The notes: generated from the sequence alone by a model not told the origin. Positions 9,501 to 43,877 are shown, counted from the stretch's first letter. The stretch is 43,905 nucleotides of DNA from Bacteroidia bacterium (GCA_036405075.1 DASWYG010000025.1:1-43905); one strand, 5' to 3'. Numbers and translations: made by a program.

Positions 9501-10159
9501 TGCATATAGTCAACACCGATTGATTTCGGATCTGAACTACTTACATATTTTACGGTCGCATCGCCTGACTTCCAAGATTTAGAGGCCGAAGTACCACCAC
9601 CAACAACCATTGTGTGAACGGTTGGTGTAGTTGTGTCTATGGCGTTGAAATAATAGAACTGTTTATCATTGGTATAGGGTGAAATGAAGTTCTCAGGTGT
9701 GCTGTTTTCTACAAAGCCAAACGAATATTCAAGTGCCACTGGTTTATCCAGGCAAATAAGTGCATGCTCTGTTTTTTGACCTAATGGAGCAGAGCCGGAT
9801 GTAATTGTAAATTCAATCTCTTCACTGTTCATTGAATCAATTGTACCTTCCCATTCGATTGAAGCTGCTATGTTGTTGGCTAGTCCTGTCCAATCCTTAA
9901 CAAAGACGATTGACTGACCAATTGAGAAACCGTCATCCTCCCATGAGCCACTTATCCGTTTAAGAATGTTTCCGTTTTGGACCTCGAAGTAACGAGTTTG
10001 GTCGGCCTCTGTAATTAATGAAGCATTTACTTCAGACACAAATTTCAACTTCTCTCCTACTGACCCCTTCAAATGTTTTGCAAAGTCAGTTAAGTTTGAA
10101 GCGAATGTGTTACCATTGCCCCACTGCGAGAAATATTTTCTACTTAATATCTGTATCAT
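6596..10159 (-). CDS. Large distal tail / host-recognition protein (Tal or gpJ position, 1187 aa)
   Basis: The largest ORF in the window. It lies two genes downstream of the tape measure and is beta-rich. All internal ORFs in other frames are short shadow ORFs. Confidence 0.65.
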   Translation of the reverse strand: MIQILSRKYFSQWGNGNTFASNLTDFAKHLKGSVGEKLKFVSEVNASLITEADQTRYFEVQNGNILKRISGSWEDDGFSIGQSIVFVKDWTGLANNIAASIEWEGTIDSMNSEEIEFTITSGSAPLGQKTEHALICLDKPVALEYSFGFVENSTPENFISPYTNDKQFYYFNAIDTTTPTVHTMVVGGGTSASKSWKSGDATVKYVSSSDPKSIGVDYMHKYEITQEFIINPLFLEAYETAFDNGTQPDEFFKENTIKHIASYTFRTALTNPNTSIVITDSSLLGSVGWFGENYNGYNNPYSVSNLAYTNYDDGEAVDSLQLHQKTRVTGQINGTGFTNTSKLGIYFFWAAPLSRYSSKQDSLQDTFLTDSIIGSMVSGTFTTTGSGRIKQITFNYLSASRVDFEADIEFSSDEREYINPDLLDTISDKYFIGIQAGNTNSVDTSNKVIVQADWQQFVVNNDESGLLTFSNQEFFPHPIDDDENGYTDYKGWKQDGIQYGCTISKNLLANIRNIQVRVIAYSENNQFDLQKYIFDVSDKILVNAVVDYEKLDINTTRGYKLATGDQFNKVFLTFDDPVGGWQDIELKCAVKLDWQSWIKLPNADTIFYDGALDSLGMGKDSSRYIGNGYSIKLVIDVDVEKNVTTRYSDYSPDLKIYDWSLDELTLWGVTIQTFDIDDNDLGGAILKNADTKVVITYTPTSGNTADFNIDCAVTRLDIAQSTGYGTIEEASSLRTLRTGGIFKAVNGESKLKLVDTGTEVVTTILIDFTKLGTEDYLLSGRLFGSPNFPLYQIARDIKSLSEDELLLFNCADNGIAVSNSLRIAQLNADKVIISETAIALSASYTYQNLKLAVSTINTNGKPNFYAVTYTGTATEVHEFIFNGTIYTQTRIYTANIGGSGPTFIRIDPALEPNSKPYIWFGNRDANLGGGDRGCKILYHNGTSWQNLSWVCYDSGSPTNDMCAHPQDIIHDNSNVYVMNYDNPPQSFQYTYGKIAQYYQSSGSTTDPVDRADFSNYSLVYNIQINTSNGENVDGLAGTVGDLAFNIGFEVLEIDANSNPVFLIVHSADNGSGGFGRHFSRLRANIASPSDPDHWTIETPMSATNANEGTPQALRGQASSTIETSPLQNKNQSHIWVIDPNTFVTGHQARFYWVKHVINDWTGVLPNDWAIYSPNNPNYNFTSGNQLT

Positions 10160-10316
10160 TTAGCTTCTTGATTACTTCTAATATCTTATCTGAGTTGAGC
10201 GAATTTATGCCCTCTTTGATGGCTGCTGTGTGCTGTTTTAGTGCCGCTTTTTGCTCATCGCTTAACCCGGACTTTTCGATTTGCTCTTCTGTTTTCTTTA
10301 ACTGTTCTAAAATCAT
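10140..10316 (-). CDS. Small helical protein (58 aa), absent from the ORF track
   Basis: Hand translation gives MILEQLKKTEEQIEKSGLSDEQKAALKQHTAAIKEGINSLNSDKILEVIKKLNDTDIK. Its ATG forms an ATGA overlap with the stop of 10313..12100, and it fills an otherwise empty 150-nt gap. Confidence 0.5.
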   Translation of the reverse strand: MILEQLKKTEEQIEKSGLSDEQKAALKQHTAAIKEGINSLNSDKILEVIKKLNDTDIK

Positions 10317-12100
10317 GGTTCAACTGGTGTTTCTTTAAGTGATTCTTGATTAACATAAGTAAAAGGCTCTTCAATGGTCGCAACAGCTGTGTCGCTCGAA
10401 AGATTCCATTTGATGTGCCTGAACTTCATTACTGTGCCGTTATGCTCGAAAAATGAGTTATTATATGTTTTTAAATAGTCTTCAAAACTGAATGGTATTC
10501 TAACTCCCTCATAAATTTTCTTTTGTGAAAACTCAGGAGCTTCTTTGAATGAGCGGACATAGTGATAGTTGTTGTATAGATATTTTGCTGATAGTAAGTC
10601 TCTGTGGTTTTTAGGGATAATTCCATCCCGGATCACAACCAACTTAGGGACATTGAATGAATTCTGTGAGATAACCAATTTACCCTTATTTTCATCGATC
10701 TTTTCGTTGAATGTTTTGCCTCCGAGGATCTTGATAAATGAGTCAATGCCCATTAGCAGCGTCTTTGCTGCGTATTCCATTGCGCTCAACTTATTGCGCC
10801 TCGCCCCCAATGCAAGTTTAATTCTTACGTCTTCTAAACCTTTTGTTAATCGGTTTTTATTTTCAATTGGGTTGGCCAGTTCAGTAGCAACCTCATAGAA
10901 CACACCTTTTTCGTATTGCTTCGAATCGCTGTCCTTTTCATTTGGCATGGTGTATTCGTCCGCAGGATCATACTGAAATGACAAAATAAAATTACCCCTG
11001 AATTCATCGGTATTAAACCTGAATTTTTCCATCAATAAACCATTTGCTCCAAGCAATTCATTAGGCAATTGGTAGCCTGAATTCTTTTGCAATCTTTCGG
11101 ACTTTTCAGGTATTAAAATGAATGTTCTTCTATTGTTGATTACAGTCATTTTACTCTTTGCCCTAAATAGATCTATGGCTGTGTTTAACGCTTCTATGCA
11201 TTGATAACCAAAATCGTCAGTGTTTGGAATACCTTCATCCTGCCTGTTTTTACGGATCTTATTGTCTGTTTTTGAAGGGAGGTAAACATACCAATCAAGT
11301 TCTCTTATTTCGCTTTGAAAGTCTATATCAAAATAGGCAAATGCTTTTGTTAACATTGTCCTTAAAGTCATGCCTTTATACTTTACTGGTATTGGCAAAA
11401 GGTTTTTGACAAGAGATTTTAATAAATTTGTTACCGTGATTAGCAAAATTGCAGTGTATGCAATGAGTTGAATTGCGAACGCAATCGCTTCGTATAGATC
11501 AGCCGGTTTTTGAGTTGGTGTAGAAAATGTGAGGGCCTTAAATGTTTTTACAATCGACTCTTTATTTTCTTTAATCCAATTATGCGTAGTATCATATATC
11601 AAGAACAAAGAGACTGATACCAACGTCGTCTCCAATCCATCAAACTTTTTACGAATAATTACAGGGACTTCAATATAATCATTTTCGGTAATAAATTTCT
11701 TTTGAGCCAATAACCCATAGGTAATGGATTGCAACATTTGATCAATGTATTCCAATCCATCATAAGGTTTTATTTTAATCGTCAACTCCGTTTCATTGAT
11801 AAACTCAATTTCAGTTGTATCTAAAATACCATCATAGTTGATGTACTTTTGAAGCTGATCTGAATATATCTGCATTGTGAATGGAATGCCGTCAAATATT
11901 GAAGGTCCATTACTTCTCGATTGGTCATAATTGATCCACCTTTTTATCAGTAAGGCGGTTTCATTGACAAACCTGAATGAGTCTATTTCAATTTGTGGCT
12001 GTATAGAATCTTCATAAGCGGCAATAATGTCTATATTCATCCAATTTGTTGGTGGTAATACATCTTGCCCGGCAATATTGAAAATAATTTCGTATTTCAT
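10313..12100 (-). CDS. Distal tail protein (Dit position, 595 aa)
   Basis: Immediately downstream of the tape measure gene and ATGA-coupled to it. Contains an internal hydrophobic segment, AIAFAIQLIAYTAILLITV. Confidence 0.55.
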   Translation of the reverse strand: MKYEIIFNIAGQDVLPPTNWMNIDIIAAYEDSIQPQIEIDSFRFVNETALLIKRWINYDQSRSNGPSIFDGIPFTMQIYSDQLQKYINYDGILDTTEIEFINETELTIKIKPYDGLEYIDQMLQSITYGLLAQKKFITENDYIEVPVIIRKKFDGLETTLVSVSLFLIYDTTHNWIKENKESIVKTFKALTFSTPTQKPADLYEAIAFAIQLIAYTAILLITVTNLLKSLVKNLLPIPVKYKGMTLRTMLTKAFAYFDIDFQSEIRELDWYVYLPSKTDNKIRKNRQDEGIPNTDDFGYQCIEALNTAIDLFRAKSKMTVINNRRTFILIPEKSERLQKNSGYQLPNELLGANGLLMEKFRFNTDEFRGNFILSFQYDPADEYTMPNEKDSDSKQYEKGVFYEVATELANPIENKNRLTKGLEDVRIKLALGARRNKLSAMEYAAKTLLMGIDSFIKILGGKTFNEKIDENKGKLVISQNSFNVPKLVVIRDGIIPKNHRDLLSAKYLYNNYHYVRSFKEAPEFSQKKIYEGVRIPFSFEDYLKTYNNSFFEHNGTVMKFRHIKWNLSSDTAVATIEEPFTYVNQESLKETPVEP

Positions 12101-14659: not shown

Positions 14660-15250
14660 TTATTTCTTGTTTATAGTTTGAATCATTGAGTAGAATTCAA
14701 TGACACTTACTTTGTGTGGATCTATTGGATGGCCTTGCGCTCTTGATAGCTGTGCAATGACCTTGTAAATGCTTTCACTTTCTTTTGTTTTATAATCTTC
14801 AATTTCTGCTTTCTTCTCATTGACGATGGCCTTATTGATTGGGCTTGGATCAAGAATATAGTTGCACATGAGTTCAGAATATTGCTTTAGGTTTTCGAGG
14901 TACTCTTTGTAATCATTCGACAATCCGATTTGCTTTAAAAACTGGTCGTTGATTCGTTTGTAAATGCGATTCATGACCATTATTTCAATAGGTGCATAGA
15001 TGAATAGAAGCATAACAAACCCCAATGCGAATGCAATGTTGATGCTCAGTAAATAGGTAACAAATACCAAAATACCAACGATGAATTCACGGTTATTTTT
15101 AGCCAAAAGTCTTGTATCGCCAGTCTCATTGATTTTGAACCAATGTATTACGGGCAATGTTTCAATTGAACCATAATACCTAAGCCAAATCAAGCTTTGT
15201 ACGAAGGACTTGAGGGTATTTTTCGCGTATGTAATTTTGAACCTTTTCAA
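14660..15250 (-). CDS. Membrane-helix-containing protein in the tail-chaperone slot (196 aa from a TTG start)
   Basis: Overlaps the upstream ORF by 71 nt in the +1 frame. The only in-frame start in the overlap is TTG. Hydrophobic stretch FIVGILVFVTYLLSINIAFALGFVMLLFIYAPIEI. Confidence 0.45.
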   Translation of the reverse strand: MKRFKITYAKNTLKSFVQSLIWLRYYGSIETLPVIHWFKINETGDTRLLAKNNREFIVGILVFVTYLLSINIAFALGFVMLLFIYAPIEIMVMNRIYKRINDQFLKQIGLSNDYKEYLENLKQYSELMCNYILDPSPINKAIVNEKKAEIEDYKTKESESIYKVIAQLSRAQGHPIDPHKVSVIEFYSMIQTINKK

Positions 15251-23618: not shown

Positions 23619-25094
23619 TTAATAATTTGCAGGAGTTGAACCAAGATTATATTCAAGTCTTAAATCAAACCATTCACGCATCATGAACGGGTCACCGAAG
23701 TCAGGCGAACGGCCATTTAATATTGCTTTCTGCTCTTCCTTTGAATTGATTTGCATTTTGCCATCCATGTCTACCTTATCTCGTTTGATGGCTCTTAAAT
23801 CAGCTTTAATGAGGTCACGAATATCGACAACCTCAGATCCTTTTTTGATTTTAGTACCTCGAATACCGTTGATCTCGACCGTTTCGGGTGTAATGGTCCA
23901 AAGCGCAGAACCTTCATTCACTTTCTTAGATGCCCGGTAATAGCACTGTGTTTTGAGATTCTTGTAATTCTCTTTGATTCTTGTCTCAGGATCTTTCATC
24001 GGTTGCGCACCACCGTGAAATCCTTGATACCCTCCGAGCTTCACTGTGCTGTCCCCAACTCCATCTTGATCGACTAAGACATTTGACTTAGGAATAATGA
24101 ATCGTTTGCGTTCGGCTTCAATGATGTTTACAATGTCGTATGCTTCAGTTTTAAAATAGACAATGGTTTTGACTACTTGCCAACCTGACCAAACAAGCAC
24201 AACTGTATAATCTCGGCCAAATCTTGACGCATCGCAAGTGATGTATTTTTTGCCCGGATCTGCATAGTTTGAAAACAGATCATTGCACTTGTAATAATCA
24301 AATAAACCAAGTCCATCAACTCTAACTTTCCAGTTACCATCAAGAAGCTGCGCCCTGAGTGCTTCATCTTGAGCCATTAAGTTGGCCAAGTATTCAGGAT
24401 TGACTTCAAGTAGTTTTTTGTTGTGATAAATAGAACCTGGAATAAAGGTCATTGACTTAACAAGATCATTCACATCAACATCATTTGCTTTTGCGATTGA
24501 AGCAATGTCCGGAACTTGATCAATGACTTCTTGCTTGGTGTTTCCCCAAATGTAATTGTCTTGATACATGATGAAGTATCTGAGCTTACCACATCTTTCT
24601 TTTGTTGGAAACCCGTCTTCACCAATGAACCACTTAATGAACTCAGCAACCCAACTATCAGGGTCAGGGTTACATGTGCATCGAACATACGGCTTAACGC
24701 CGCATGATGAACGATTACGAGATAACAAATAAAAGAATTGCTTTTTAGTGAAATGTGTAACCTCGTCGAATCCAATGAATGGAATTTGTGATCCTTGCCA
24801 GTTGAGAATATCTTTCTCATATTCTAAGTGCGAAAATTTGAGTTTTGAGTTCTTGAATATCCATTCAGATGTGCTGCCTTTAGGTGAACCTCCGGCAAAT
24901 GGATAAAGCGTTGTTGAAGTGTCCCACAAACCACCCTCAGATTTAATTTGTGGCATTGTACGTCTGAATATTACACCGCCCCAGTTCTCTACATTCTTAT
25001 GTCTCAAAAACTCCATCAGCAATGCAAATGTCTTTCCTGATCCTGCGGCACCGCCACCAATGACAATATCAGCAGGTGAACCCATAAAGTCCAT
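23619..25094 (-). CDS. terL: Terminase large subunit
   Basis: Walker A motif GGGAAGSGKT near the N-terminus, a DE-type Walker B (IGFDEVTH), a C-terminal nuclease-like half, and a size of 491 aa. Confidence 0.85.
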   Translation of the reverse strand: MDFMGSPADIVIGGGAAGSGKTFALLMEFLRHKNVENWGGVIFRRTMPQIKSEGGLWDTSTTLYPFAGGSPKGSTSEWIFKNSKLKFSHLEYEKDILNWQGSQIPFIGFDEVTHFTKKQFFYLLSRNRSSCGVKPYVRCTCNPDPDSWVAEFIKWFIGEDGFPTKERCGKLRYFIMYQDNYIWGNTKQEVIDQVPDIASIAKANDVDVNDLVKSMTFIPGSIYHNKKLLEVNPEYLANLMAQDEALRAQLLDGNWKVRVDGLGLFDYYKCNDLFSNYADPGKKYITCDASRFGRDYTVVLVWSGWQVVKTIVYFKTEAYDIVNIIEAERKRFIIPKSNVLVDQDGVGDSTVKLGGYQGFHGGAQPMKDPETRIKENYKNLKTQCYYRASKKVNEGSALWTITPETVEINGIRGTKIKKGSEVVDIRDLIKADLRAIKRDKVDMDGKMQINSKEEQKAILNGRSPDFGDPFMMREWFDLRLEYNLGSTPANY

Positions 25095-25144: not shown

Positions 25145-25471
25145 TCAGTTTAGATTGATTTCTAATTCTCGACCCATATCAAAGCAAAAATTTTGTAAGT
25201 GATGCAATGTGTATATTTCGCATAAATGAACTTCTGTTTCACCAAAATACACTTGCCCCTCTACTGAAATAATTATGTCGTCCTTAAAGTAATACCCAGT
25301 TTGACCTTCATTAAACCCGCATTTCAATAGTATTTCTTCGGTGATGGGGATGGGTTTACACCACGGTCTTTCATTATGCCATATTTCTTCAATTGTGCTA
25401 GGCGAGGCTTGTCTGTATTCACCATTATGGTCATACCAATTCCCTATCCTTAATTCGTTTGCTTGTATCAT
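25145..25471 (-). CDS. Paralog family A protein (108 aa)
   Basis: Shares ELRxGNW, PITEEILLKCGF and LHxLQN...ELEINL with 31417..31794. Confidence 0.65.
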   Translation of the reverse strand: MIQANELRIGNWYDHNGEYRQASPSTIEEIWHNERPWCKPIPITEEILLKCGFNEGQTGYYFKDDIIISVEGQVYFGETEVHLCEIYTLHHLQNFCFDMGRELEINLN

Positions 25472-26776: not shown

Positions 26777-27022
26777 TCAACCTATCTTTGCCAAATCATG
26801 TAAACCACTGGATAAATACACTGGTTGCAATGGTTGATTGAATGTCAACTGTTGAAGGTAAACACACCTTGTCTTTGACACCTCTTCAAACTCTTCGTCG
26901 GTCATTTGCCAACATGTGATCACCTCACCAGTCTCAGGTATTCGCAAAGCCGGTAATGGTTGATATTCGGGCTGATTTGCTCCGAATACTACGTTTTGTC
27001 CTTTAAATTCTTTTGGTTTCAT
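26777..27022 (-). CDS. Hypothetical protein (81 aa)
   Basis: ORF in the operon. Confidence 0.55.
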   Translation of the reverse strand: MKPKEFKGQNVVFGANQPEYQPLPALRIPETGEVITCWQMTDEEFEEVSKTRCVYLQQLTFNQPLQPVYLSSGLHDLAKIG

Positions 27023-27037
27023 GTCGATTTATATAAG

Positions 27038-27301
27038 TTAATTTCTACTTGGTAAATGTATTTCGAGTTCTCTGTGTTTATCAATCAATGCCTCTAGGTC
27101 ATCAACTTTCATATCTATCATGAAATTGGATGCGCCTGAATGAACAATTGAATATTGACGGTCAGGTCCTAAATAGAATGGGCTTATTGCGTCAATGTTG
27201 TATATGACCACTGTGTATTTTACACCTTCATCAATCTCTTTGATCATTTCTTCAATGTCGGGCGAATTTGAATGAAATATTGTTTCTATTTTAAGTTTCA
27301 T
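27038..27301 (-). CDS. Hypothetical protein (87 aa), distant paralog of 25797..26045
   Basis: See 25797..26045. ATGA-coupled to the upstream gene. Confidence 0.55.
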   Translation of the reverse strand: MKLKIETIFHSNSPDIEEMIKEIDEGVKYTVVIYNIDAISPFYLGPDRQYSIVHSGASNFMIDMKVDDLEALIDKHRELEIHLPSRN

Positions 27302-30071: not shown

Positions 30072-30412
30072 AGTACAGGCTTTCTATTCAGCATTTGGCG
30101 AAGTACGAATGAGTGATTGTTACCTATTCCAACTACTTCATTGATGTAGTTTTGAGCGGCTTCAACTCGACCCTCTTCGCACAGTTTTTTTATTCTTTTA
30201 AAGTGATTTACTTCTACTCCCCCGCTTCTTACTCTCTCATAAACCACTGTCGGATCAACAGGATTCCCATTAGATTGCTTGGTTATACCTTTTGCGATAA
30301 GCGATGTACCAGTGACATACTCAACTGTTTTTTGGTTTTCCGCTGTGTAGCATTTGGGCAATCCCATTGCAATGCTCTTAATGTGCTTAATATCGGATTT
30401 GGAGAGTTTCAT
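30068..30412 (-). CDS. Hypothetical basic protein (114 aa), first gene after promoter-like element P1
   Basis: ORF that is ATGA-coupled to the tail-fibre gene. Confidence 0.6.
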
Positions 30413-30470
30413 TTTAGCAAAAATATACTACCTATCAAGCGCATGAGTGCTGAGTTGATTGGCGTTTACG

Positions 30471-30516
30471 CAAAAATCGTTTTATTAAATAGGTCTATTC
30501 AGACGAGTTGCGAACG
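30471..30516 (-). promoter_or_regulatory. Copy P1 of the bipartite promoter-like element, upstream of the tail-fibre/packaging block
   Basis: Minus strand: CGTTCGCAACTCGTCTG-N21-GATTTTTG. It matches P3 at 15 of 17 positions in the upstream box and has identical spacing. Confidence 0.5.
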
Positions 30517-30517
30517 G

Positions 30518-30661
30518 TTAATATTTACCTGACATCCAGTTCATAAATGTTGTTATTAATTTCAAAATGAAAATACAAAACTTAACGATAGTCCCCAAAA
30601 TCAATAGTTTAAGAATCTTTAATTCAATTTTAATAAATTCCATATTTCGTTGATTATTCAT
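30518..30661 (-). CDS. Micro-ORF encoding a 47-aa hydrophobic peptide
   Basis: MNNQRNMEFIKIELKILKLLILGTIVKFCIFILKLITTFMNWMSGKY. ATGA overlap with the stop of 30658..31110. Confidence 0.45.
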   Translation of the reverse strand: MNNQRNMEFIKIELKILKLLILGTIVKFCIFILKLITTFMNWMSGKY

Positions 30662-31110
30662 ATTCCCTCTTGTATTACCATGTCATTAAAGCAAAATTGA
30701 ATATAACTTTCTTTCGACCCACTGAATAACTGCCCTTTACCTTCACCCTCTACAAAGTTTGCATTATGTTTGCAGGTTATCGTGTCGCAAACAGTTATTG
30801 AATCATCTTCTGTGACCAAATAAACATCAAATCCTACACATAACAAATCGTCAATTTCCTCACATTTCTCAAATTGTAATCCTTTATGATAAGAGGTTAA
30901 TATGTCAAATTGAGATATAAGTTTAATCCCATTATCAATGTAGCTTAATTGAGTATTTTCGAGGAATTCTTCGCATTTAGCAAAACCAATGGAACTAATG
31001 TGATTGTTATGATAATAAGGTATAATTGCAACTAGTTTGCTATTATCATATACAAGCATGTGAAATGATCCATCTTCATCTTTTGCGACTATAAACCTAT
31101 AATCATTCAT
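30658..31110 (-). CDS. Acidic hypothetical protein (150 aa)
   Basis: ORF, ATGA-coupled on both sides. Confidence 0.6.
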   Translation of the reverse strand: MNDYRFIVAKDEDGSFHMLVYDNSKLVAIIPYYHNNHISSIGFAKCEEFLENTQLSYIDNGIKLISQFDILTSYHKGLQFEKCEEIDDLLCVGFDVYLVTEDDSITVCDTITCKHNANFVEGEGKGQLFSGSKESYIQFCFNDMVIQEGI

Positions 31111-31229
31111 ACTTTCTCAACTTTATATCCTTGTGCCTCCAAAAGTCGTTTGACCTTGTAATAATTTTTTTCTTCAATTACTTGAGTACTGTCTTCTTTT
31201 CCTTTGGTGTATCTAATGGTTGTTTTCAT
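31107..31229 (-). CDS. Micro-ORF (40 aa, MKTTIRYTKGKEDSTQVIEEKNYYKVKRLLEAQGYKVEKV)
   Basis: TGATG overlap upstream and ATGA overlap downstream. Its first 15 nt, ATGAAAACAACCATT, are also present inside the 29-nt junction repeat. Confidence 0.4.
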   Translation of the reverse strand: MKTTIRYTKGKEDSTQVIEEKNYYKVKRLLEAQGYKVEKV

Positions 31230-31393
31230 CAAAATGATTTTTTTGTTTTCATTCTATGCTTTTGTATTAAATGTTTGCGCTCTAGTGCTTTTGTTTTAAG
31301 ACTTGCGTATTCCTCGGCAAATCTTATTACCCAACTATCCATAGCAGATATTTTATTCCTGTACTTTTTTAAAAACAGTTCCTCAGCTTTCAT
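31229..31393 (-). CDS. Micro-ORF (54 aa, MKAEELFLKKYRNKISAMDSWVIRFAEEYASLK...)
   Basis: It starts at the ATG that ends junction-repeat copy A. It replaces the F/L-rich plus-strand track ORF 31131..31403. Confidence 0.45.
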   Translation of the reverse strand: MKAEELFLKKYRNKISAMDSWVIRFAEEYASLKTKALERKHLIQKHRMKTKKSF

Positions 31394-31419
31394 TTCTATT
31401 TAATTAATGGTTGTTTTCA
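31391..31419 (-). repeat. 29-nt gene-junction repeat, copy A
   Basis: Minus strand: TGAAAACAACCATTAATTAAATAGAAATG, running from the stop of the upstream gene to the start of the downstream gene. Contains the palindrome TTAATTAA. Confidence 0.9.
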
Positions 31420-31794
31420 TAGGTTAATTTCTAGTTCTTGACCTGATAAGGCGTAAATAAGGTTTTGAAGTTGATGGAGGTGTTCAATATAAACCTCTAC
31501 TTTTGATATATTATCTACAAGGAAAGTGTTATTTACTTTATTGTGCCATATAGATATAGCAACATTTGAATACCCAATATATTTTCCTATTTCTTCTTTT
31601 TTCTCAAACCCACACTTCAATAGTATTTCTTCGGTAATGGGGATGGGTTCAATTTTATCTGCATTGTTGTATATTGCATTACCTTCAAGATGCACAGAAC
31701 CTAGATTGAAATCTAAATATATCCCATCTATCTGATGGAAATCTCCAAGCAATGACACCCAGTTACCTAATCTTAATTCTCTTACGTTTATCAT
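31417..31794 (-). CDS. Paralog family A protein (125 aa)
   Basis: ELRLGNW, PITEEILLKCGF and HLHQLQNLIYALSGQELEINL, a paralog of 25145..25471. Confidence 0.65.
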   Translation of the reverse strand: MINVRELRLGNWVSLLGDFHQIDGIYLDFNLGSVHLEGNAIYNNADKIEPIPITEEILLKCGFEKKEEIGKYIGYSNVAISIWHNKVNNTFLVDNISKVEVYIEHLHQLQNLIYALSGQELEINL

Positions 31795-31820
31795 TTCTAT
31801 TTAATTAATGGTTGTTTTCA
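31792..31820 (-). repeat. 29-nt gene-junction repeat, copy B
   Basis: Identical to copy A at all 29 positions. Confidence 0.9.
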
Positions 31821-32216
31821 CTTTAATTCAGCTTCTAATTTTTGTATTTGAAGTTCAGTCCAATCATGATTGAGTAGTTCAAAATGTTCATTTCTGAAAT
31901 CTTTGACTGATTGAATGCTTGATTTAGCGTTTTTAATTTTGGTAAACAATTCTTTCATCATTTGCGCCTTACAGTATCTTATAGCTTCGCTTTCTTTAAC
32001 AAAGTAAAACACACGCTTATTGTCTGAATATCTAGAATATTCAATTACCACTTCACCTGAGTTAATTTTACGGGGTATTTTTTCGTCGGATGGCAAATAC
32101 AACTTTTCAGAATCTACTTTATAGATAGTAATAGATTCGTACTTCATTGTATTTTTGTAAACTTTATAAACTTTGTCTCCTGCTGTTAATTCGATAAATT
32201 TTGTTTTTGCTATCAT
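31818..32216 (-). CDS. Hypothetical protein (132 aa)
   Basis: ORF bounded on both sides by junction repeats. Confidence 0.6.
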   Translation of the reverse strand: MIAKTKFIELTAGDKVYKVYKNTMKYESITIYKVDSEKLYLPSDEKIPRKINSGEVVIEYSRYSDNKRVFYFVKESEAIRYCKAQMMKELFTKIKNAKSSIQSVKDFRNEHFELLNHDWTELQIQKLEAELK

Positions 32217-32242
32217 TTCTGTTTAATTAATGGTTGTTTTCA
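32214..32242 (-). repeat. 29-nt gene-junction repeat, copy C
   Basis: Matches copy A at 28 of 29 positions. The similarity to copy A continues for about 70 more nt into the 3' end of the adjacent gene. Confidence 0.9.
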
Positions 32243-32612
32243 TAGGTTAATTTCTAGTTCTTCGCCTGTTAATGCGAAGTAGAGGTTTTGAAGTTGGTGG
32301 AGGTATTTGATATGTCCTTGTTTAAATGATATAAATGTATCGTCTTGAATTATGTCACATTCTCCGCAATTAAAGTTATAAAACCTCAACCCCATCCTTG
32401 GGTTAAAATATATAACTGCCCATTCTCCACTCTTTTCAACCCCACCCCTCGTAAAGTGTTATTTCTTTATGTTGTAATGGATTTAAAGCGTATAAGGCAG
32501 CTAGCTTCAACTCCCCATTTGTATGCTCAGAATCGTGTTCTAAAGTCCATCCATGTTTTTCTAATTGTTCCCGTCTCTCGTCGGAAATCAATTCAATTCC
32601 TGTTTTATTCAT
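32240..32612 (-). pseudogene. Decayed chimeric gene: an unrelated N-terminal module fused to a family A C-terminal module
   Basis: The frame from the ATG at 32612 gives MNKTGIELISDERREQLEKHGWTLEHDSEHTNGELKLAALYAL...ITLYEGWG and then hits TGA. The family A homology can only be followed across that stop and one frameshift, ending ...GHIKYLHQLQNLYFALTGEELEINL at 32240. Confidence 0.5.
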
Positions 32613-32866
32613 GATTGATTAAATGTTTGTTCAAAGTATTGTTCTGCATTTTTAAATTCTTTCACCAATTGGTCAGCATTATCACTCAACCCTTGATTGT
32701 AAGCATTTTCTATTTGCGCTCGTTCCTTTTCTTTTGCTTGTTTGATAGACAGTGTTACGGCATGGCTTTGTCCATAGCCATCGCTGTGCAAATACCTTAA
32801 TTGCTTTAGTCTTTCAACTAAATACTCAACGGCTGTTTGTTGTTTTTTGGTTGTATCTTGTTTCAT
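32609..32866 (-). CDS. Hypothetical protein (85 aa counted from MKQDTTKKQQ)
   Basis: The ATG at 32866 forms an ATGA overlap with the stop of 32863..33201. The longer track ORF would overlap that gene by 67 nt. Confidence 0.55.
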   Translation of the reverse strand: MKQDTTKKQQTAVEYLVERLKQLRYLHSDGYGQSHAVTLSIKQAKEKERAQIENAYNQGLSDNADQLVKEFKNAEQYFEQTFNQS

Positions 32867-33201
32867 GGTGTTGGTGGTTCGGGTAATGGTTGCCAGTGGG
32901 TAACTATTGGGTGATGTAAAATGCTCCAATCATTGAATTCATAGTCGTAAAATACCACAGATATTACCCCGGAATCATAAAGAATTAATACCTTTTCAGA
33001 GAAGTTTTGCCCTGTGTTTTCAGGAAGCCTATCCTCAACACTTATCCATTTACTTGCCTTCAATTCTTCAATTTCTTTTTGAAGGGAGGCTGTTTTTGAT
33101 TGGGCGTATTGTTCGGAAATAATTGCAATAGTATTTCTTGCGGCACTTGGAAGACCTGATAATTCATTATCAATTTTTTGTGTTAATTGTTGTTTATTCA
33201 T
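32863..33201 (-). CDS. DUF551-like phage protein (112 aa)
   Basis: The C-terminus WISVEDRLPE...VTHWQPLPEPP matches the DUF551 signature as recalled from memory. Confidence 0.6.
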   Translation of the reverse strand: MNKQQLTQKIDNELSGLPSAARNTIAIISEQYAQSKTASLQKEIEELKASKWISVEDRLPENTGQNFSEKVLILYDSGVISVVFYDYEFNDWSILHHPIVTHWQPLPEPPTP

Positions 33202-33541
33202 GATTAATTGTTTTTAAATATTCTTTTGCCTTTATTGAACACTCATCTTCAGGGTAATTTTTGCCATATTCTTGCCTGAATGCGTCTAGTGCGCCATCAG
33301 ATGAAGCTAACATTACTTTGAGGTGATGGACAAGGTTCTTATTAACATTTTTCAATCTCTCTATCTCCTTATCCTTTTCCTGTATCAGTTGATTATGATA
33401 GGTTTCGGATAGGTATCTTTTAAACCCGTCATTAACTCTATGTTGCCAAATGGAGGCGTTATGCACCCATTCTGATGCAACTACTGTTCTAAGGTCTTGG
33501 TTATCGACCCAAATTTCTGTTGGTTCTTTTGGTTGGTTCAT
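33194..33541 (-). CDS. Hypothetical protein (115 aa)
   Basis: ORF in the operon. Confidence 0.55.
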   Translation of the reverse strand: MNQPKEPTEIWVDNQDLRTVVASEWVHNASIWQHRVNDGFKRYLSETYHNQLIQEKDKEIERLKNVNKNLVHHLKVMLASSDGALDAFRQEYGKNYPEDECSIKAKEYLKTINHE

Positions 33542-33559
33542 AATGTTTCTATAATTTTA

Positions 33560-33856
33560 TTAAATATACCCCTCTGAAATATCAATATCTTTACAAGTAA
33601 CATTATCAATTTCACCCAATACATCACACCAAAATTTTCTACAATCGTTGGTATAATCATCGGAACGGTCTTCCCATTCTTCATGAATTTCTTCGACGAC
33701 TTTTTTGGCACATATCTTACAATTTTCCAGAATAGTTGGTCCGTAAGCGGTGTTTGTAAGCATACTGCTCCCAGAATAAGGATAAACTATACCCTTATAA
33801 TAATCAACTAATTCAATAGCTTTTTGTTTTGCTGTTTTTGGTTTATTTTCTTTCAT
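33560..33856 (-). CDS. Cys-containing hypothetical protein (98 aa)
   Basis: ORF. Its upstream sequence ATAGAAACATTATG is shared with the next gene. Confidence 0.55.
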   Translation of the reverse strand: MKENKPKTAKQKAIELVDYYKGIVYPYSGSSMLTNTAYGPTILENCKICAKKVVEEIHEEWEDRSDDYTNDCRKFWCDVLGEIDNVTCKDIDISEGYI

Positions 33857-34053
33857 AATGTTTCTATTTCGTTGTTATAAATCTTTTCTAAAAGGACAAT
33901 ATTTTTAGGTTTTTGATTATCTAAACCCAAATAAATTGCTTCTTTAATACTGCTTACCTTTGAATCTGAAAAATGTTTTTCCATGTTCTCAAGCAACTCG
34001 TTTCTTAGTTTCTCATCCTTTACGGATTCAAACCATTGTTTAATTGTTTTCAT
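33853..34053 (-). CDS. Hypothetical protein (66 aa)
   Basis: ORF, ATGA-coupled. Confidence 0.55.
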   Translation of the reverse strand: MKTIKQWFESVKDEKLRNELLENMEKHFSDSKVSSIKEAIYLGLDNQKPKNIVLLEKIYNNEIETL

Positions 34054-34649
34054 TGTATGTGATTTATTTTGAGGTTTTTATTTACAATATCAATAATATA
34101 TTCTCCAATGTGCTTGCGGCAAATGTCAGCAGTAGCTAATTCATTAGTTTTTACGGCGGCGTGAGCAGTAGCGTAGGCGGCGGTATGGATTACCTCAATA
34201 TTAGTATCACGCATCTTAAAGTCAACACTTGCTATATATGTATCATAGGCATGATTATGAACAACAGAAGATGAATATGAGGCACCTGGGGCTTGGTCAA
34301 AAATATCATCATCGTCATTAGTTGATATAACTGAAATGCAATCGCTTAGCACATCTTCAGTAATTTTACCATTACCGTAATCAATAAGCGCATTTATAGC
34401 ATTTTTAATTTCATCACTATCCTCTAGGTTAATCACCGTTGCAGCACAATGCCCGTAAGCAAGTGATAAACGATTCTTTTCAACGCCGATTCTTTTTGCT
34501 AAGCATTGAAGCCAGTCACCCCTTGGACATGAAGCAACAAAATCTTCTACCGACATATCGCCTATCCATTCATAAACCTCTCCTGCGACATAAACTTTGG
34601 ATAAATACTCTTTAAATGTCATTGTATGTTTCGTTAAAGTATTGTTCAC
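34050..34649 (-). CDS. Helical hypothetical protein (199 aa) with a CPRGDW motif and an Ala-rich C-terminal half
   Basis: ORF with no enzyme motif recognised. Confidence 0.55.
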   Translation of the reverse strand: MNNTLTKHTMTFKEYLSKVYVAGEVYEWIGDMSVEDFVASCPRGDWLQCLAKRIGVEKNRLSLAYGHCAATVINLEDSDEIKNAINALIDYGNGKITEDVLSDCISVISTNDDDDIFDQAPGASYSSSVVHNHAYDTYIASVDFKMRDTNIEVIHTAAYATAHAAVKTNELATADICRKHIGEYIIDIVNKNLKINHIQ

Positions 34650-37993: not shown

Positions 37994-38580
37994 GATTTAA
38001 TTACCTCCAATCTTTTTAATTCAAAGAAACATTTCGCACAAGCAATAACGTCATTTAAAGCATCGTGAGCGCCGTCAAACGAAGTTTTAAATAACACATT
38101 GTGAAGCTCTTCTAGTTTTGGCCATTTAAAAGACGCATACCCGTTTTGGTTGGGTATTTTGCAAAAGTTTGTTGATGACTGCATTGTACAAACCTTTATC
38201 GGTTTTGTCTCTGACTTAAGGTTAAGTCTGATATATTCTGCACCAACAATTTTTTCATCAAATGCCATGTTATGGGCAATTAAATGAGTGCAATTGCTTA
38301 AATATGAATTAAACTCATTGATTGCCTCTAAAATAGGAATTCCCAACTCCAATGATTTTTCAGTTGAATAACCGTTGTCAATCCAAAATTTTTCATTTGG
38401 AATAACCCAATTATCGGGTTTAATAAGGGCGCAGTACTTATGGATAATCTCACCTTGTTCATTGAATACAGCAAAGGCTAATTGAATTATTCTTGGCCAG
38501 TTATCTACGCTGCTCACTGGAGCTTTCCAATCTTTTGGAAGTCCATTTGTTTCCGTATCGAAAAATAAATATTTGTTCAT
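37990..38580 (-). CDS. DEDDh 3'-5' exonuclease (DnaQ-like)
   Basis: Exo I FFDTETNG, Exo II HNMAFDEKIV, Exo III HDALNDV. Confidence 0.8.
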   Translation of the reverse strand: MNKYLFFDTETNGLPKDWKAPVSSVDNWPRIIQLAFAVFNEQGEIIHKYCALIKPDNWVIPNEKFWIDNGYSTEKSLELGIPILEAINEFNSYLSNCTHLIAHNMAFDEKIVGAEYIRLNLKSETKPIKVCTMQSSTNFCKIPNQNGYASFKWPKLEELHNVLFKTSFDGAHDALNDVIACAKCFFELKRLEVIKS

Positions 38581-39266
38581 ATCTCTGAAAGTGCTTGTTT
38601 TACTCTAGTTTCCAATAAATCAAAATCCGACTGCGGTATTTCAAATTCAAATGAATTGAGTTCGCTGATATTGGATTCTTTTAAAATGTATGGGAGTTCG
38701 TCGTAGTTTGCCGACTTAACCCAAAAGAAGCGATACTGGTCTACTGTTTCAATTGATTCAGCCAATGTAACGATGTCCCCTAGTGTTTCGTAGTAAGGCA
38801 TATAAACAATCAATTCAGCGTGTTTGTAGCCTATAATCAATGCGTTTGAAACAAGTTGCCAGTAGTATTCAGGTTTCTCTTCTTTGAAGTACTCAATGTC
38901 CTTTTTTTCGCAGATTTCGAGTAGTTCACAGAAAGCTTTCAGTGTGAATGGGCATTTGATATCAATGACTGATTTTTTGGGTACATTTTCGCCGTCGGGA
39001 GAACCTGCATAAAATGGGATTGATGGGTGCGCTTTGGTTTCGTCTGAATAGTACTTGTAATTAAGCCCTAGTGACTGGAATGCCATGCGCTCACACAAGT
39101 GACCCCATGTAATAGGACGGGTGTTTACTTCGGTGTTAATTGACCTTAGTAGTCTGCGCTCCATCTTAATCTCAGTGATGTATGTTTGGCGTGGCTTTGG
39201 CGCGCCCATTATACGGTACACTTGAGAAGATGTGATCGCTGCGATTCTGTTTGAGTTGTGTATCAT
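38577..39266 (-). CDS. YqaJ / lambda-Exo-like PD-(D/E)XK recombination exonuclease
   Basis: GSPDG...IDIKCP...YYWQL motifs. The gene lies near the annealase gene. Confidence 0.7.
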   Translation of the reverse strand: MIHNSNRIAAITSSQVYRIMGAPKPRQTYITEIKMERRLLRSINTEVNTRPITWGHLCERMAFQSLGLNYKYYSDETKAHPSIPFYAGSPDGENVPKKSVIDIKCPFTLKAFCELLEICEKKDIEYFKEEKPEYYWQLVSNALIIGYKHAELIVYMPYYETLGDIVTLAESIETVDQYRFFWVKSANYDELPYILKESNISELNSFEFEIPQSDFDLLETRVKQALSEI

Positions 39267-39562
39267 TTTAATAGATTTTTTAAGAATTCAATTCGTGGTT
39301 GTAATGCTTCATTTGGGTGTCTATTATTAAACCAACATTGGTTTGGTGTTTCCCATTTATACATACCTGGGTAGAAGCCAAGTATTTCGTTCATATCGCC
39401 TGATCGTGACTTAATGTAGAAAATGGATGAAAAACATAAACCAAATTCAAGATTGATTTCTATCAAATACTCAATGGCTTTATCGGGAGTCATATCACTG
39501 ACTTTATTATAAGCTTCTTGGTAAATACTAAGAAGGTGTTCTATTTGCTCTTTTGTTATCAT
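39263..39562 (-). CDS. Hypothetical protein (99 aa)
   Basis: ORF, ATGA-coupled. Confidence 0.55.
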   Translation of the reverse strand: MITKEQIEHLLSIYQEAYNKVSDMTPDKAIEYLIEINLEFGLCFSSIFYIKSRSGDMNEILGFYPGMYKWETPNQCWFNNRHPNEALQPRIEFLKNLLK

Positions 39563-40227
39563 AATGTTTTCAGAATTTCGATTGCTTTTTTGTAAGATTT
39601 GGTGTCTTTTTCGTCAATGATTCGCTTAATGTTCACTTTGTCTTCTCGTGACAGTGATTCACATTTAAGCTCAAATAGTTCGGTAAGTGTTTCAAGGTCT
39701 TCAACCGGATTTGTCCTTGTCATTTCAAATGCTACTGAGTCAGGTCTGTTAAGGTCACGACCAAAGATTTTACCGATATGCTCACAGGCATCTTTTATGG
39801 CATAAGATTTCGCGCCAGGCAATGCTTTCATAACTGCATCGGATTTGATGGCATTTAGATTCGCTGCGCTTTCGCCTTTGTCAGTTTGGACCGCAACCGC
39901 TCCTACCCCATCTTGGTACCTCATTTCTTCTGTGATTGGGTCTTGGTAGTGAACACGAACGGTAACAGCTACGGAATTGAACAAAGGTTTGGTTTCGATT
40001 ACTTCTACGTTCCACTTTTGAAAAATCCTAGTCATCAAGTATTCGACAACTTCGATTGGAACGTATTCAATTGGGACCTTTTGTCCATTTACTTTTTTTG
40101 TGGCCAGTGGATGGTTTTTAACCCACTTTTTAGGGGTTTCCACGTTGAGAATAGCATTTAATTGATCGTTTTTAAATGCTATCTCCGTGTTTTTGGTCAG
40201 GTCTTGTATTGTTGGGAGTTTGGACAT
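39559..40227 (-). CDS. Rad52/Sak-like single-strand annealing protein
   Basis: YVPIEVVEYLMTRIF..W..E...VAVTVRV...DGVGA...A..SDAVMKALPGAKSYAIKDACEHIGKIFGRDL fits the pattern of Rad52-fold phage annealases. Confidence 0.6.
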   Translation of the reverse strand: MSKLPTIQDLTKNTEIAFKNDQLNAILNVETPKKWVKNHPLATKKVNGQKVPIEYVPIEVVEYLMTRIFQKWNVEVIETKPLFNSVAVTVRVHYQDPITEEMRYQDGVGAVAVQTDKGESAANLNAIKSDAVMKALPGAKSYAIKDACEHIGKIFGRDLNRPDSVAFEMTRTNPVEDLETLTELFELKCESLSREDKVNIKRIIDEKDTKSYKKAIEILKTL

Positions 40228-40248
40228 TGTTTTTTAAGAATTATTTTT

Positions 40249-43193: not shown

Positions 43194-43232
43194 ACAAAAT
43201 GTAAAATAATTTACAAATCCTTGATACACAAC

Positions 43233-43877
43233 ATGAAAAATTTACAAAATGACGGACAAACCTTAAAACAGTGGCTTAGAACAAACGGCTACGATGTTTC
43301 ATGGTTAGCGGAAAAGCTAGGGATCACGACCCAATCCGTCTATGAACAACTAAGAAAACAAAATATTGGTGACATTTTTAAAGCAAAACTTGTAAGGGCC
43401 AACCTTACTGTTTTTACAAACGAAAACAATATTGCAGCGAATTCACCCGTTAAATCAGTCCAATCAACAAAACTTAATCTTATGATAGTTCCTTTAAAAG
43501 CCTATGGAGGATTTCTCACAGGCTACGCAAACCGTGTTTTTCTCGATTCTCTTGAATATTCAGAGTTTCCGTTTATAAAAGGCCAGTGTTATGCATTTGA
43601 AGTCGACGGCTTCTCTATGTACAATCCTGGTGATGAGAATTCAGTCAAACCCAGTGATTATGTTGTATGCACCGAAATACCCGGACCGGACTGGCTCAAT
43701 AAGGGTAAAATTTATGTCTTTCAAACTATCGATGGAATTATAATTAAAGAATTTAAAGCCATAGAGGATGGCAATTTCATTTTAAGATCATTGAATCCAG
43801 AGTATAAAGATATCCCTCCTATACCCGTTAAATCGGTCAAAAAAATCTATTATAAAGAATACATCATTAAAAAATAA
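43233..43877 (+). CDS. CI/LexA-like repressor with an S24 autopeptidase domain
   Basis: N-terminal HTH (VSWLAEKLGITTQSVYEQLRK). The C-terminal VDGFSMYNPGD...IIIKEFK fits the Ser/Lys dyad of S24 peptidases. The track start at 43221 is TTG, with an ATG at 43233. Confidence 0.8.
   Translation: MKNLQNDGQTLKQWLRTNGYDVSWLAEKLGITTQSVYEQLRKQNIGDIFKAKLVRANLTVFTNENNIAANSPVKSVQSTKLNLMIVPLKAYGGFLTGYANRVFLDSLEYSEFPFIKGQCYAFEVDGFSMYNPGDENSVKPSDYVVCTEIPGPDWLNKGKIYVFQTIDGIIIKEFKAIEDGNFILRSLNPEYKDIPPIPVKSVKKIYYKEYIIKK

Follow-up and report, generated by a model that had tools for sequence, protein, structure and literature searches.

Why should one short sequence stand at three consecutive gene boundaries of a phage genome, running each time exactly from a stop codon to a start codon? 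The question is raised by a contig of 43,905 nucleotides (nt) recorded under Bacteroidia bacterium (GCA_036405075.1 DASWYG010000025.1:1-43905), the whole of which is called the window below and which looks like a nearly complete genome of a temperate-type, not T4-type, phage. The element is a 29-nt junction, TGAAAACAACCATTAATTAAAYAGAAATG (TGAAAACAACCATTAATTAAATAGAAATG), read on the minus strand, and it touches on a debate about the turnover of small phage genes, in which random illegitimate joining followed by selection is set against homologous exchange at short shared sequences. The window was compared with L064, a Logan contig (41,269 nt) of a different study that was found through a paralog gene of this locus and is the only close relative in the collections searched. 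The comparison suggests that the junction is probably a recombination linker, a short homology at gene boundaries through which homologous recombination adds, removes, and swaps single-gene cassettes.

Like all genes of the window except a CI-like repressor gene at 43221-43877, the junction copies lie on the minus strand, to which the features below also belong. Copy A (31391..31419; 29/29 positions identical) lies between a gene for a 125-amino-acid (aa) paralog and a 54-aa gene, copy B (31792..31820; 29/29) between a 132-aa gene and the 125-aa paralog, and copy C (32214..32242; 28/29, with a T-to-C change) between a truncated paralog fragment and the 132-aa gene. Every full copy is bordered by the TGA of the upstream open reading frame (ORF) and the ATG of the next. 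The first 15 to 16 nt of the junction, (A)TGAAAACAACCATTA, are found again as half copy D (31214..31229; 16 nt, ATGAAAACAACCATTA), whose 15-nt form ATGAAAACAACCATT at 31215-31229 opens a 40-aa ORF (MKTTIRYTKGKED...; 31107..31229) and forms the real start of its product, MKTTIRY.... The spacings between the full copies are 401, 422, and 823 bp, with an additional 191 bp to half copy D. Copies A and C have 105 nt in common at 86% identity, 41 nt of which match without interruption, and the similarity runs about 70 nt into the 3′ ends of the neighboring genes. A first-pass annotation of this DNA had described the three near-identical copies, the extended A/C similarity, the use of the 5′ part of the junction as the true start of the micro-ORF at 31229, and spacings of about 400 and 820 bp; all of these were borne out, and the 191-bp spacing was not listed there.

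The repeat is real and not an assembly artefact, because independent contigs from separate public runs cross copies A and B, copies B and C, and copy C. The run contigs break only where an exact repeat is longer than the assembler's 31-mer. No match to the junction was obtained in 100 dinucleotide-preserving shuffles (chance expectation, 0), and together with the independent contigs this excludes an explanation of the copies by artefact or chance.

The extended similarity of A and C raises the possibility that the repeats are passive scars, with no role and bound to decay, of one or two local events in which the paralog and its flanks were duplicated in tandem or by unequal crossover, after which illegitimate recombination replaced unrelated genes. 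About 70 nt of the paralog 3′ end accompany A and C, as expected after a duplication. However, the identity of copies A and B covers exactly 30 nt, beyond which the sequences are unrelated in either direction, and the borders of copy B are exactly a stop and a start codon. Moreover, between A and C the junction is better kept than the adjacent coding DNA (28/29 versus 58/71 positions; Fisher one-sided p = 0.044), which also speaks against scars without a role.

Inside each junction lies a mini-ORF, (A/G)TG AAA ACA ACC ATT AAT TAA, which overlaps the upstream stop and whose own stop is located 6 nt before the next ATG and in frame with it. In copy A (31420-31400) it starts with an ATG overlapping the upstream TGA, and in copy B (31821-31801) GTG replaces the ATG. 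Read directly, the junction has stops in all three frames (TGA/TAG/TGA, TAA, and TAA), after which come an A-rich, unstructured leader and the ATG. A consensus scan of 30400-33300 revealed no sigma-70 promoter in any copy; promoter-like sites in this region number 8, with 13.1 expected, and one of them (32189-32161) lies about 25 nt downstream of copy C within the 132-aa gene. Neither a Bacteroidetes-type TTTG or TAnnTTTG motif was seen by eye in the 29 nt nor a terminator-like site or an Rfam family found at the junction copies, and the predicted RNA of 66-nt windows around each copy had a minimum free energy of 0 to −1.1 kcal/mol (z, +0.4 to +1.25).

This layout could also be a translation element kept by selection, in which the mini-ORF relays terminating ribosomes to the next gene by termination-reinitiation in a host that ignores Shine-Dalgarno (SD) sequences. 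As far as the sequence goes, the geometry appears suitable, with an ATGA or GTGA overlap, TAA, 6 nt, and ATG. In the tightly packed early/accessory region, ATGA overlaps couple most neighboring genes, and the three junctions are 23-nt gaps bridged by the mini-ORF; an SD-like 4-mer lies upstream of only 5 of 71 genes, and leaders are A-rich. Unstructured RNA favors initiation in Bacteroidia (PMC6847099), and phages with related terminases have their own repeated leaders of 19 to 32 nt before consecutive small genes. However, such a function by itself predicts a loose consensus rather than 29/29 identity limited to three adjacent genes of one genome, and L064 has this sequence as the end of another ORF, with no ATGA-overlap relay. 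In addition, initiation regions of Bacteroidetes favor A at position −3 and avoid an upstream AUG, whereas the junction has G at −3 and an upstream AUG (PMC6847099). A relay of this kind is thus quite unlikely to account for the repeat, and it is compatible with a recombination role.

Gene cassettes in a relative of the phage

The window and L064 are 92 to 97% identical in several modules, with unrelated segments between them. The junction occurs once in L064 (9978-10004; 27/27 identical), so that the junction is carried by a related genome, on which the first-pass annotation had made its reading depend. L064 9978-10029 matches copy B and the first 23 nt of the 125-aa gene at 98% over 52 nt. 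Downstream of the L064 junction lies the same paralog gene, and upstream of it lie genes other than those in the window; there a 21-aa ORF of L064, MKHLILIIILLWGCNNQTTIN* (9930-9995), closes at the TAA of the junction in a frame differing from that of the window's TGA. This ORF encodes a lipoprotein-type signal peptide and lipobox with almost no mature part and looks like the remnant of a truncated gene.

At its other end, the L064 paralog gene passes from its stop directly into ATGAAAACAACCATTAGATAC, with an overlapping ATGAAAACAACCATTAGATACACC..., and L064 10324-10360 is identical to half copy D and the start of the 40-aa ORF at 37/37 nt. In a three-way alignment, L064 consists of the left flank of copy A, then the common 16 nt ATGAAAACAACCATTA, and then the right flank of half copy D. 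The 54-aa gene (31229..31393), located between A and D in the window and absent from L064, is on this alignment an indel exactly at the repeat, because L064 joins the two outer flanks through the 16 nt. The 132-aa gene (31818..32216), between C and B, is absent from L064 as well. Two further cassettes behave in the same way at repeats of other sequences. A 98-aa gene (33560-33856; cassette, 33537..33867) is flanked by a 16-nt direct repeat, ATAGAAACATTATGAA, at 33867-33852 and 33552-33537, and a 190-aa gene (34050-34622; cassette, 34050..34629) is flanked by an 11-nt direct repeat, ACATACAATGA, at 34629-34619 and 34060-34050. Both genes are missing from L064 exactly at the repeats, with one copy of each repeat remaining, and both repeats span start codons.

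When all 2,485 pairs of the 71 gene starts in the window are compared, the longest in-register matches, of 30 and 16 nt, each link adjacent genes, and the third longest, of 13 nt, links genes two apart. The window and L064 share further islands of 24 to 37 nt at 93 to 100% identity, located at gene borders between nonhomologous segments. The best-supported description of the 29-nt junction is that of the longest of the start-codon-spanning repeats used for cassette exchange.

The comparison with L064 also bears on the passive-scar explanation, and in both directions. The window junction is derivable by a single crossover within 12 nt, AAACAACCATTA, between two L064 junctions, and elsewhere there are indels with microhomology only and scar mini-ORFs, such as MKQDTTKTNI* in L064, both of which suit scars. 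By contrast, three separate cassettes that come and go exactly at start-codon repeats are beyond what one duplication would produce. Taken with the state of copy B and the better preservation of the junction, this makes passive scars a rather unlikely, if conceivable, origin of the repeats.

The mini-ORF MKQDTTKTNI* stems from an 85-aa gene (32609-32866) that is deleted in L064 (window, 32608-32879; L064, 9253-9309), the scar fusing the first 7 codons of the gene to its last few. Because of this scar, the sequences appear to show that mini-ORFs of the junction type arise by deletion in this lineage.

Two other L064 genes are composite. Its single paralog gene (10001-10327) is a three-part mosaic of the 125-aa and 108-aa paralogs of the window: the first 29 nt, within the 52-nt match from the junction, are 98% identical to the 125-aa gene, the middle 220 nt are 88.6% identical to the 108-aa paralog (25456-25237), and the last 72 nt are 93% identical to the 125-aa and fragment copies. 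Such a pattern would imply that paralogs located 6 kb from each other in the window have exchanged sequence. A 182-aa gene of L064 (8705-9253; window, 33050-33420) matches a 115-aa gene of the window in its 5′ part and a DUF551 gene (32863-33201) in its later part, joined in a coiled-coil-like QKEIEELK region; either two genes have fused in L064 or one has been split in the window.

A proposed route of exchange and its likely enzymes

We propose that single-gene cassettes would move by homologous recombination, either from one linker to another or through the 16-nt 5′ half that its copies have in common. The all-frame stops would always terminate a gene joined upstream, and a gene joined downstream would keep a usable start; recombinants with exact linker borders would survive because the stops, the leader, and the ATG keep both neighbors workable. 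The linker of the window resembles a hybrid between two native L064 junctions, the one between the paralog end and the MKTTIRY start and the one formed by the leader and the paralog start, and it could have been formed by one crossover in the 12 nt common to both, AAACAACCATTA. A repeat on both sides of a cassette would then be the expected trace of a single crossover with a circular cassette.

The exchanges would be homologous and would most likely be catalyzed by the phage's own exonuclease and annealing protein. The window contains a gene for a YqaJ/lambda-exonuclease-type recombination exonuclease (38577..39266; PF09588, E = 4.6e-8; PHROG RecE-like exonuclease; TIGR03033). Two genes upstream of it lies a candidate gene for a Rad52-like single-strand annealing protein (39559..40227). 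The exact identities of copies A and B (30 nt) and of copies A and C (41 nt) exceed the minimal efficient pairing segment of Red-beta, which is 23 to 27 bp, as compared with 31 to 34 bp for RecA (PMC3945230). If the junction is such a linker, deletions of 191, 401, 422, 592, 823, and 1014 bp, cassette circles, and a dependence on the exonuclease and annealing genes are expected.

The candidate annealing gene is itself a different allele in L064, where it lies between near-identical islands at both ends, a start island of 25 nt at 100% identity (window, 40219-40243; L064, 3577-3601) and an end island of 37 nt at 97% identity (window, 39567-39603; L064, 4196-4232). The L064 gene at this position matches Pfam Rad52_Rad22 above the cut-off (23 bits), and the two proteins have only the C-terminal 40 aa in common.

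Several points weigh against the linker reading. The assignment of 39559-40227 to a Rad52-like annealing protein is weak, its Pfam Rad52_Rad22 match (E = 0.032) falling below the cut-off, and a single-sequence AlphaFold model of the protein (pLDDT, 52) is too poor to use. All-frame stops are expected in about 1 in 8 stretches of 29 nt in AT-rich DNA by our estimate and are a property of the junction, not evidence. The indels of a 91-aa gene and of the 85-aa gene between the window and L064 have only 3 to 7 nt of microhomology, so that illegitimate recombination is at work here as well. Contigs from four of the five source runs contain no deletion or duplication joints over 30600-33300, where all are identical, at a depth of 4 to 8x at which rare deletions or circles would not show; two further runs with distant relatives yielded only scraps. 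Exact-pattern scans of IMG/VR and GTDB genomes revealed neither the junction nor its paralog-end form, and JGI metagenomes gave five single 20-mer matches only, in unrelated contexts and judged to be chance; because of these results, the junction is not a widely shared linker. Finally, all comparative inference depends on one relative, in which each event is seen once and may have been an insertion or a deletion; the linker may still be active.

In one of the contigs searched, L006 (Ga0182739_1049268), the match to the junction at 1100-1126 extends beyond the 20-nt seed to 25 nt, TATGAAAACAACCATTAATTAAATA, with unrelated flanks, and is probably due to chance. Relatives recovered through other genes of the phage were also without the junction. 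Neither the array genes nor the junction occurs at 51 IMG/VR loci with related terminases (≤56% aa identity), and searches of IMG/VR for related loci with the YqaJ protein and a 114-aa protein gave no matches. Five relatives that carry a 558-aa gene at 65 to 77% identity (L067-L071) lack the junction; L070/L071 and L068/L069 are identical pairs and provide no extra indel test. Among deposited phages, a DNA match was obtained only with Olleya phage Harreka_1, in which the paralog is accompanied by an ordinary junction.

In other phages of the group, consecutive small genes have genome-specific repeats of 19 to 32 nt that directly precede or span their start codons, at 15159/15308/15549 in L024, 1776/2370/3572 in L044, 1998/2505 in L061, and 13/542/949 in L010. 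AAACAAATAAATATTATGGA, for example, is present in three copies, and ATGACAGCAACCTCA forms the start of each of two neighboring but unrelated genes.

A more far-reaching version of the idea holds that the junction is a selected portable adaptor, consisting of the all-frame stop, an SD-independent leader, and a start, which travels with single genes as small circles and integrates Campbell-style at other copies by means of the annealing protein and exonuclease only. It would amount to integrase-free, integron-like gene capture in temperate phages of Bacteroidota, and it would have local counterparts in the repeated leaders of L024, L044, L061, and L010. We consider it speculative and improbable, and return below to the junction as a boundary homology.

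Genes of the array

The array reads, in the 5′-to-3′ direction, 58-aa ORF, paralog fragment, copy C, 132-aa gene, copy B, 125-aa paralog, copy A, 54-aa gene, and half copy D with the 40-aa ORF. The 125-aa paralog (31417..31794) is a full-length member of phrog_10066 (E = 4e-24; profile positions 1-135), a widespread small phage protein of unknown function, and has 649 homologues in a large protein collection, the best at 46% identity. A third member of the family, which had been pointed out in the first-pass annotation, is encoded at 25145..25471 (108 aa; E = 6e-12), just upstream of the terminase gene (23619-25094). The 132-aa gene has only two homologues, 44% and 38% identical, both on short contigs, and the 54-aa gene has no Pfam or PHROG match. 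A stretch at 27001-27050 with 70% similarity to the paralog end and junction was treated as chance, being out of frame in an 87-aa gene that is not phrog_10066.

Within phrog_10066 genes, about 45 to 50 nt encoding ...PIPITEEILLKCGF are 86 to 94% identical in DNA, with proteins only about 40% identical overall. The stretch lies at 31597-31649 and 25313-25356 in the window, 6266-6318 in L070, 2831-2882 in L065, 10115-10161 in L064, and 10160-10201 in L063, and either a hot spot of recombination or an intragenic nucleic-acid element may account for it.

Next to copy C, positions 32240-32612 had been described as a decayed chimera. An unrelated N-terminal part and a paralog C-terminal part are indeed present, but they are two abutted gene fragments in different frames, joined by an old deletion or an illegitimate join. 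The upstream one, a 58-aa ORF (32436..32612) closed by a TGA, is the 5′ part of an unrelated module, which in the matching PHROG profiles extends about 35 to 75 positions further (median, about 60). The downstream one (32240..32428) is a 3′ fragment of a phrog_10066 gene covering profile positions 75-135 of 136, in which the first ATG, at 32395, opens a 51-aa ORF and homology begins about 10 codons upstream of that ATG. Recoding of the stop codon at TGA 32436 was rejected, as a TAA follows ten codons on in the same frame. At the join, a 9-nt direct repeat, TGGGGTTGA, occurs at 32436-32444 and 32386-32394, 50 nt apart, with one copy holding the stop of the 58-aa fragment and the other the start region of the 51-aa ORF.

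Because an Olleya phage and records of Empedobacter and Chitinophagales contain homologues of the window proteins, the host probably belongs to the Bacteroidota.

Comparison with known systems

The first-pass annotation had likened the junction to the cassette linkers of T4-type phages. In those phages, promoter-early stem-loop (PeSL) cassettes combine a strong sigma-70-like promoter with a stable stem-loop terminator (Arbiol et al. 2010, PMC2839356; Comeau et al. 2014, PMC4122927). PeSLs flank small genes of unknown function, indels and replacements between close relatives cross over inside the motif, and copies are proposed to recombine with one another by homology, which would also excise cassettes as circles (PMC2839356, PMC4122927). 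The three copies and the half copy of the junction also flank small genes of unknown function, and the 54-aa indel breaks inside the motif. However, PeSLs act on transcription, whereas the junction, in a codirectional translated array, would act on translation if at all. The junction is also only 29 nt long and unstructured and belongs to a temperate-type phage. Judged by the one relative L064, the recombination-linker part of the likeness stands, with the 27/27 junction in L064 and the 54-aa breakpoint in the repeat, and the T4 part does not, the phage not being of that type. Since both defining features, promoter and stem-loop, are missing, the junction is not a PeSL; it may work like one, and the T4 comparison is an analogy only.

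A closer counterpart is provided by the short conserved boundary sequences of lambdoid phages, for which Clark et al. 2001 (phage HK620) is cited in PMC2327257. In both cases the phage is temperate and the region mosaic, with near-identical islands of a few tens of bp at gene borders. Lambdoid phages likewise have their own exonuclease and an annealing protein that uses short homology, the annealing protein here being a candidate only. Rad52-like recombinases drive exchange and mosaicism in phages (PMC3945230). As at such boundaries, a conserved border is found here with unrelated sequence on at least one side, the L064 junction being 27/27 identical with different upstream genes. In contrast, the same sequence occurs here three times in one genome, at consecutive genes and in a Bacteroidota-type lineage; its ends are exactly a stop and a start codon, and it has stops in all frames. 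The junction fits among the short conserved boundary sequences of temperate phages.

The array further resembles an integron, with single promoterless genes, one recurring site, and a different outer flank at the last site, as successive insertions would leave, and the junction could accordingly be imagined as the target of a site-specific enzyme, such as an attC-like site, a homing endonuclease site, or a transposon end. However, the junction lacks the folded, hairpin-forming imperfect inverted repeat of attC and its GTTRRRY core, and Pfam and PHROG scans found no integron integrase or endonuclease family among the array and neighboring genes. Other cassettes in the same genome use different, unrelated repeats, which argues for homology independent of sequence. 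A site-specific target, with or without artefact or chance added, is therefore highly improbable.

To our knowledge, nothing of this kind has been described in a Bacteroidota-type, SD-independent phage lineage. For homologous exchange the locus is an unusually legible case, with three repeats in a row and a relative that differs by whole genes there. Among known systems, it illustrates the shuffling of small phage genes cleanly but has precedents, and it offers no new principle; what sets it apart is that a Bacteroidota-type phage has three identical stop-to-start copies one after the other.

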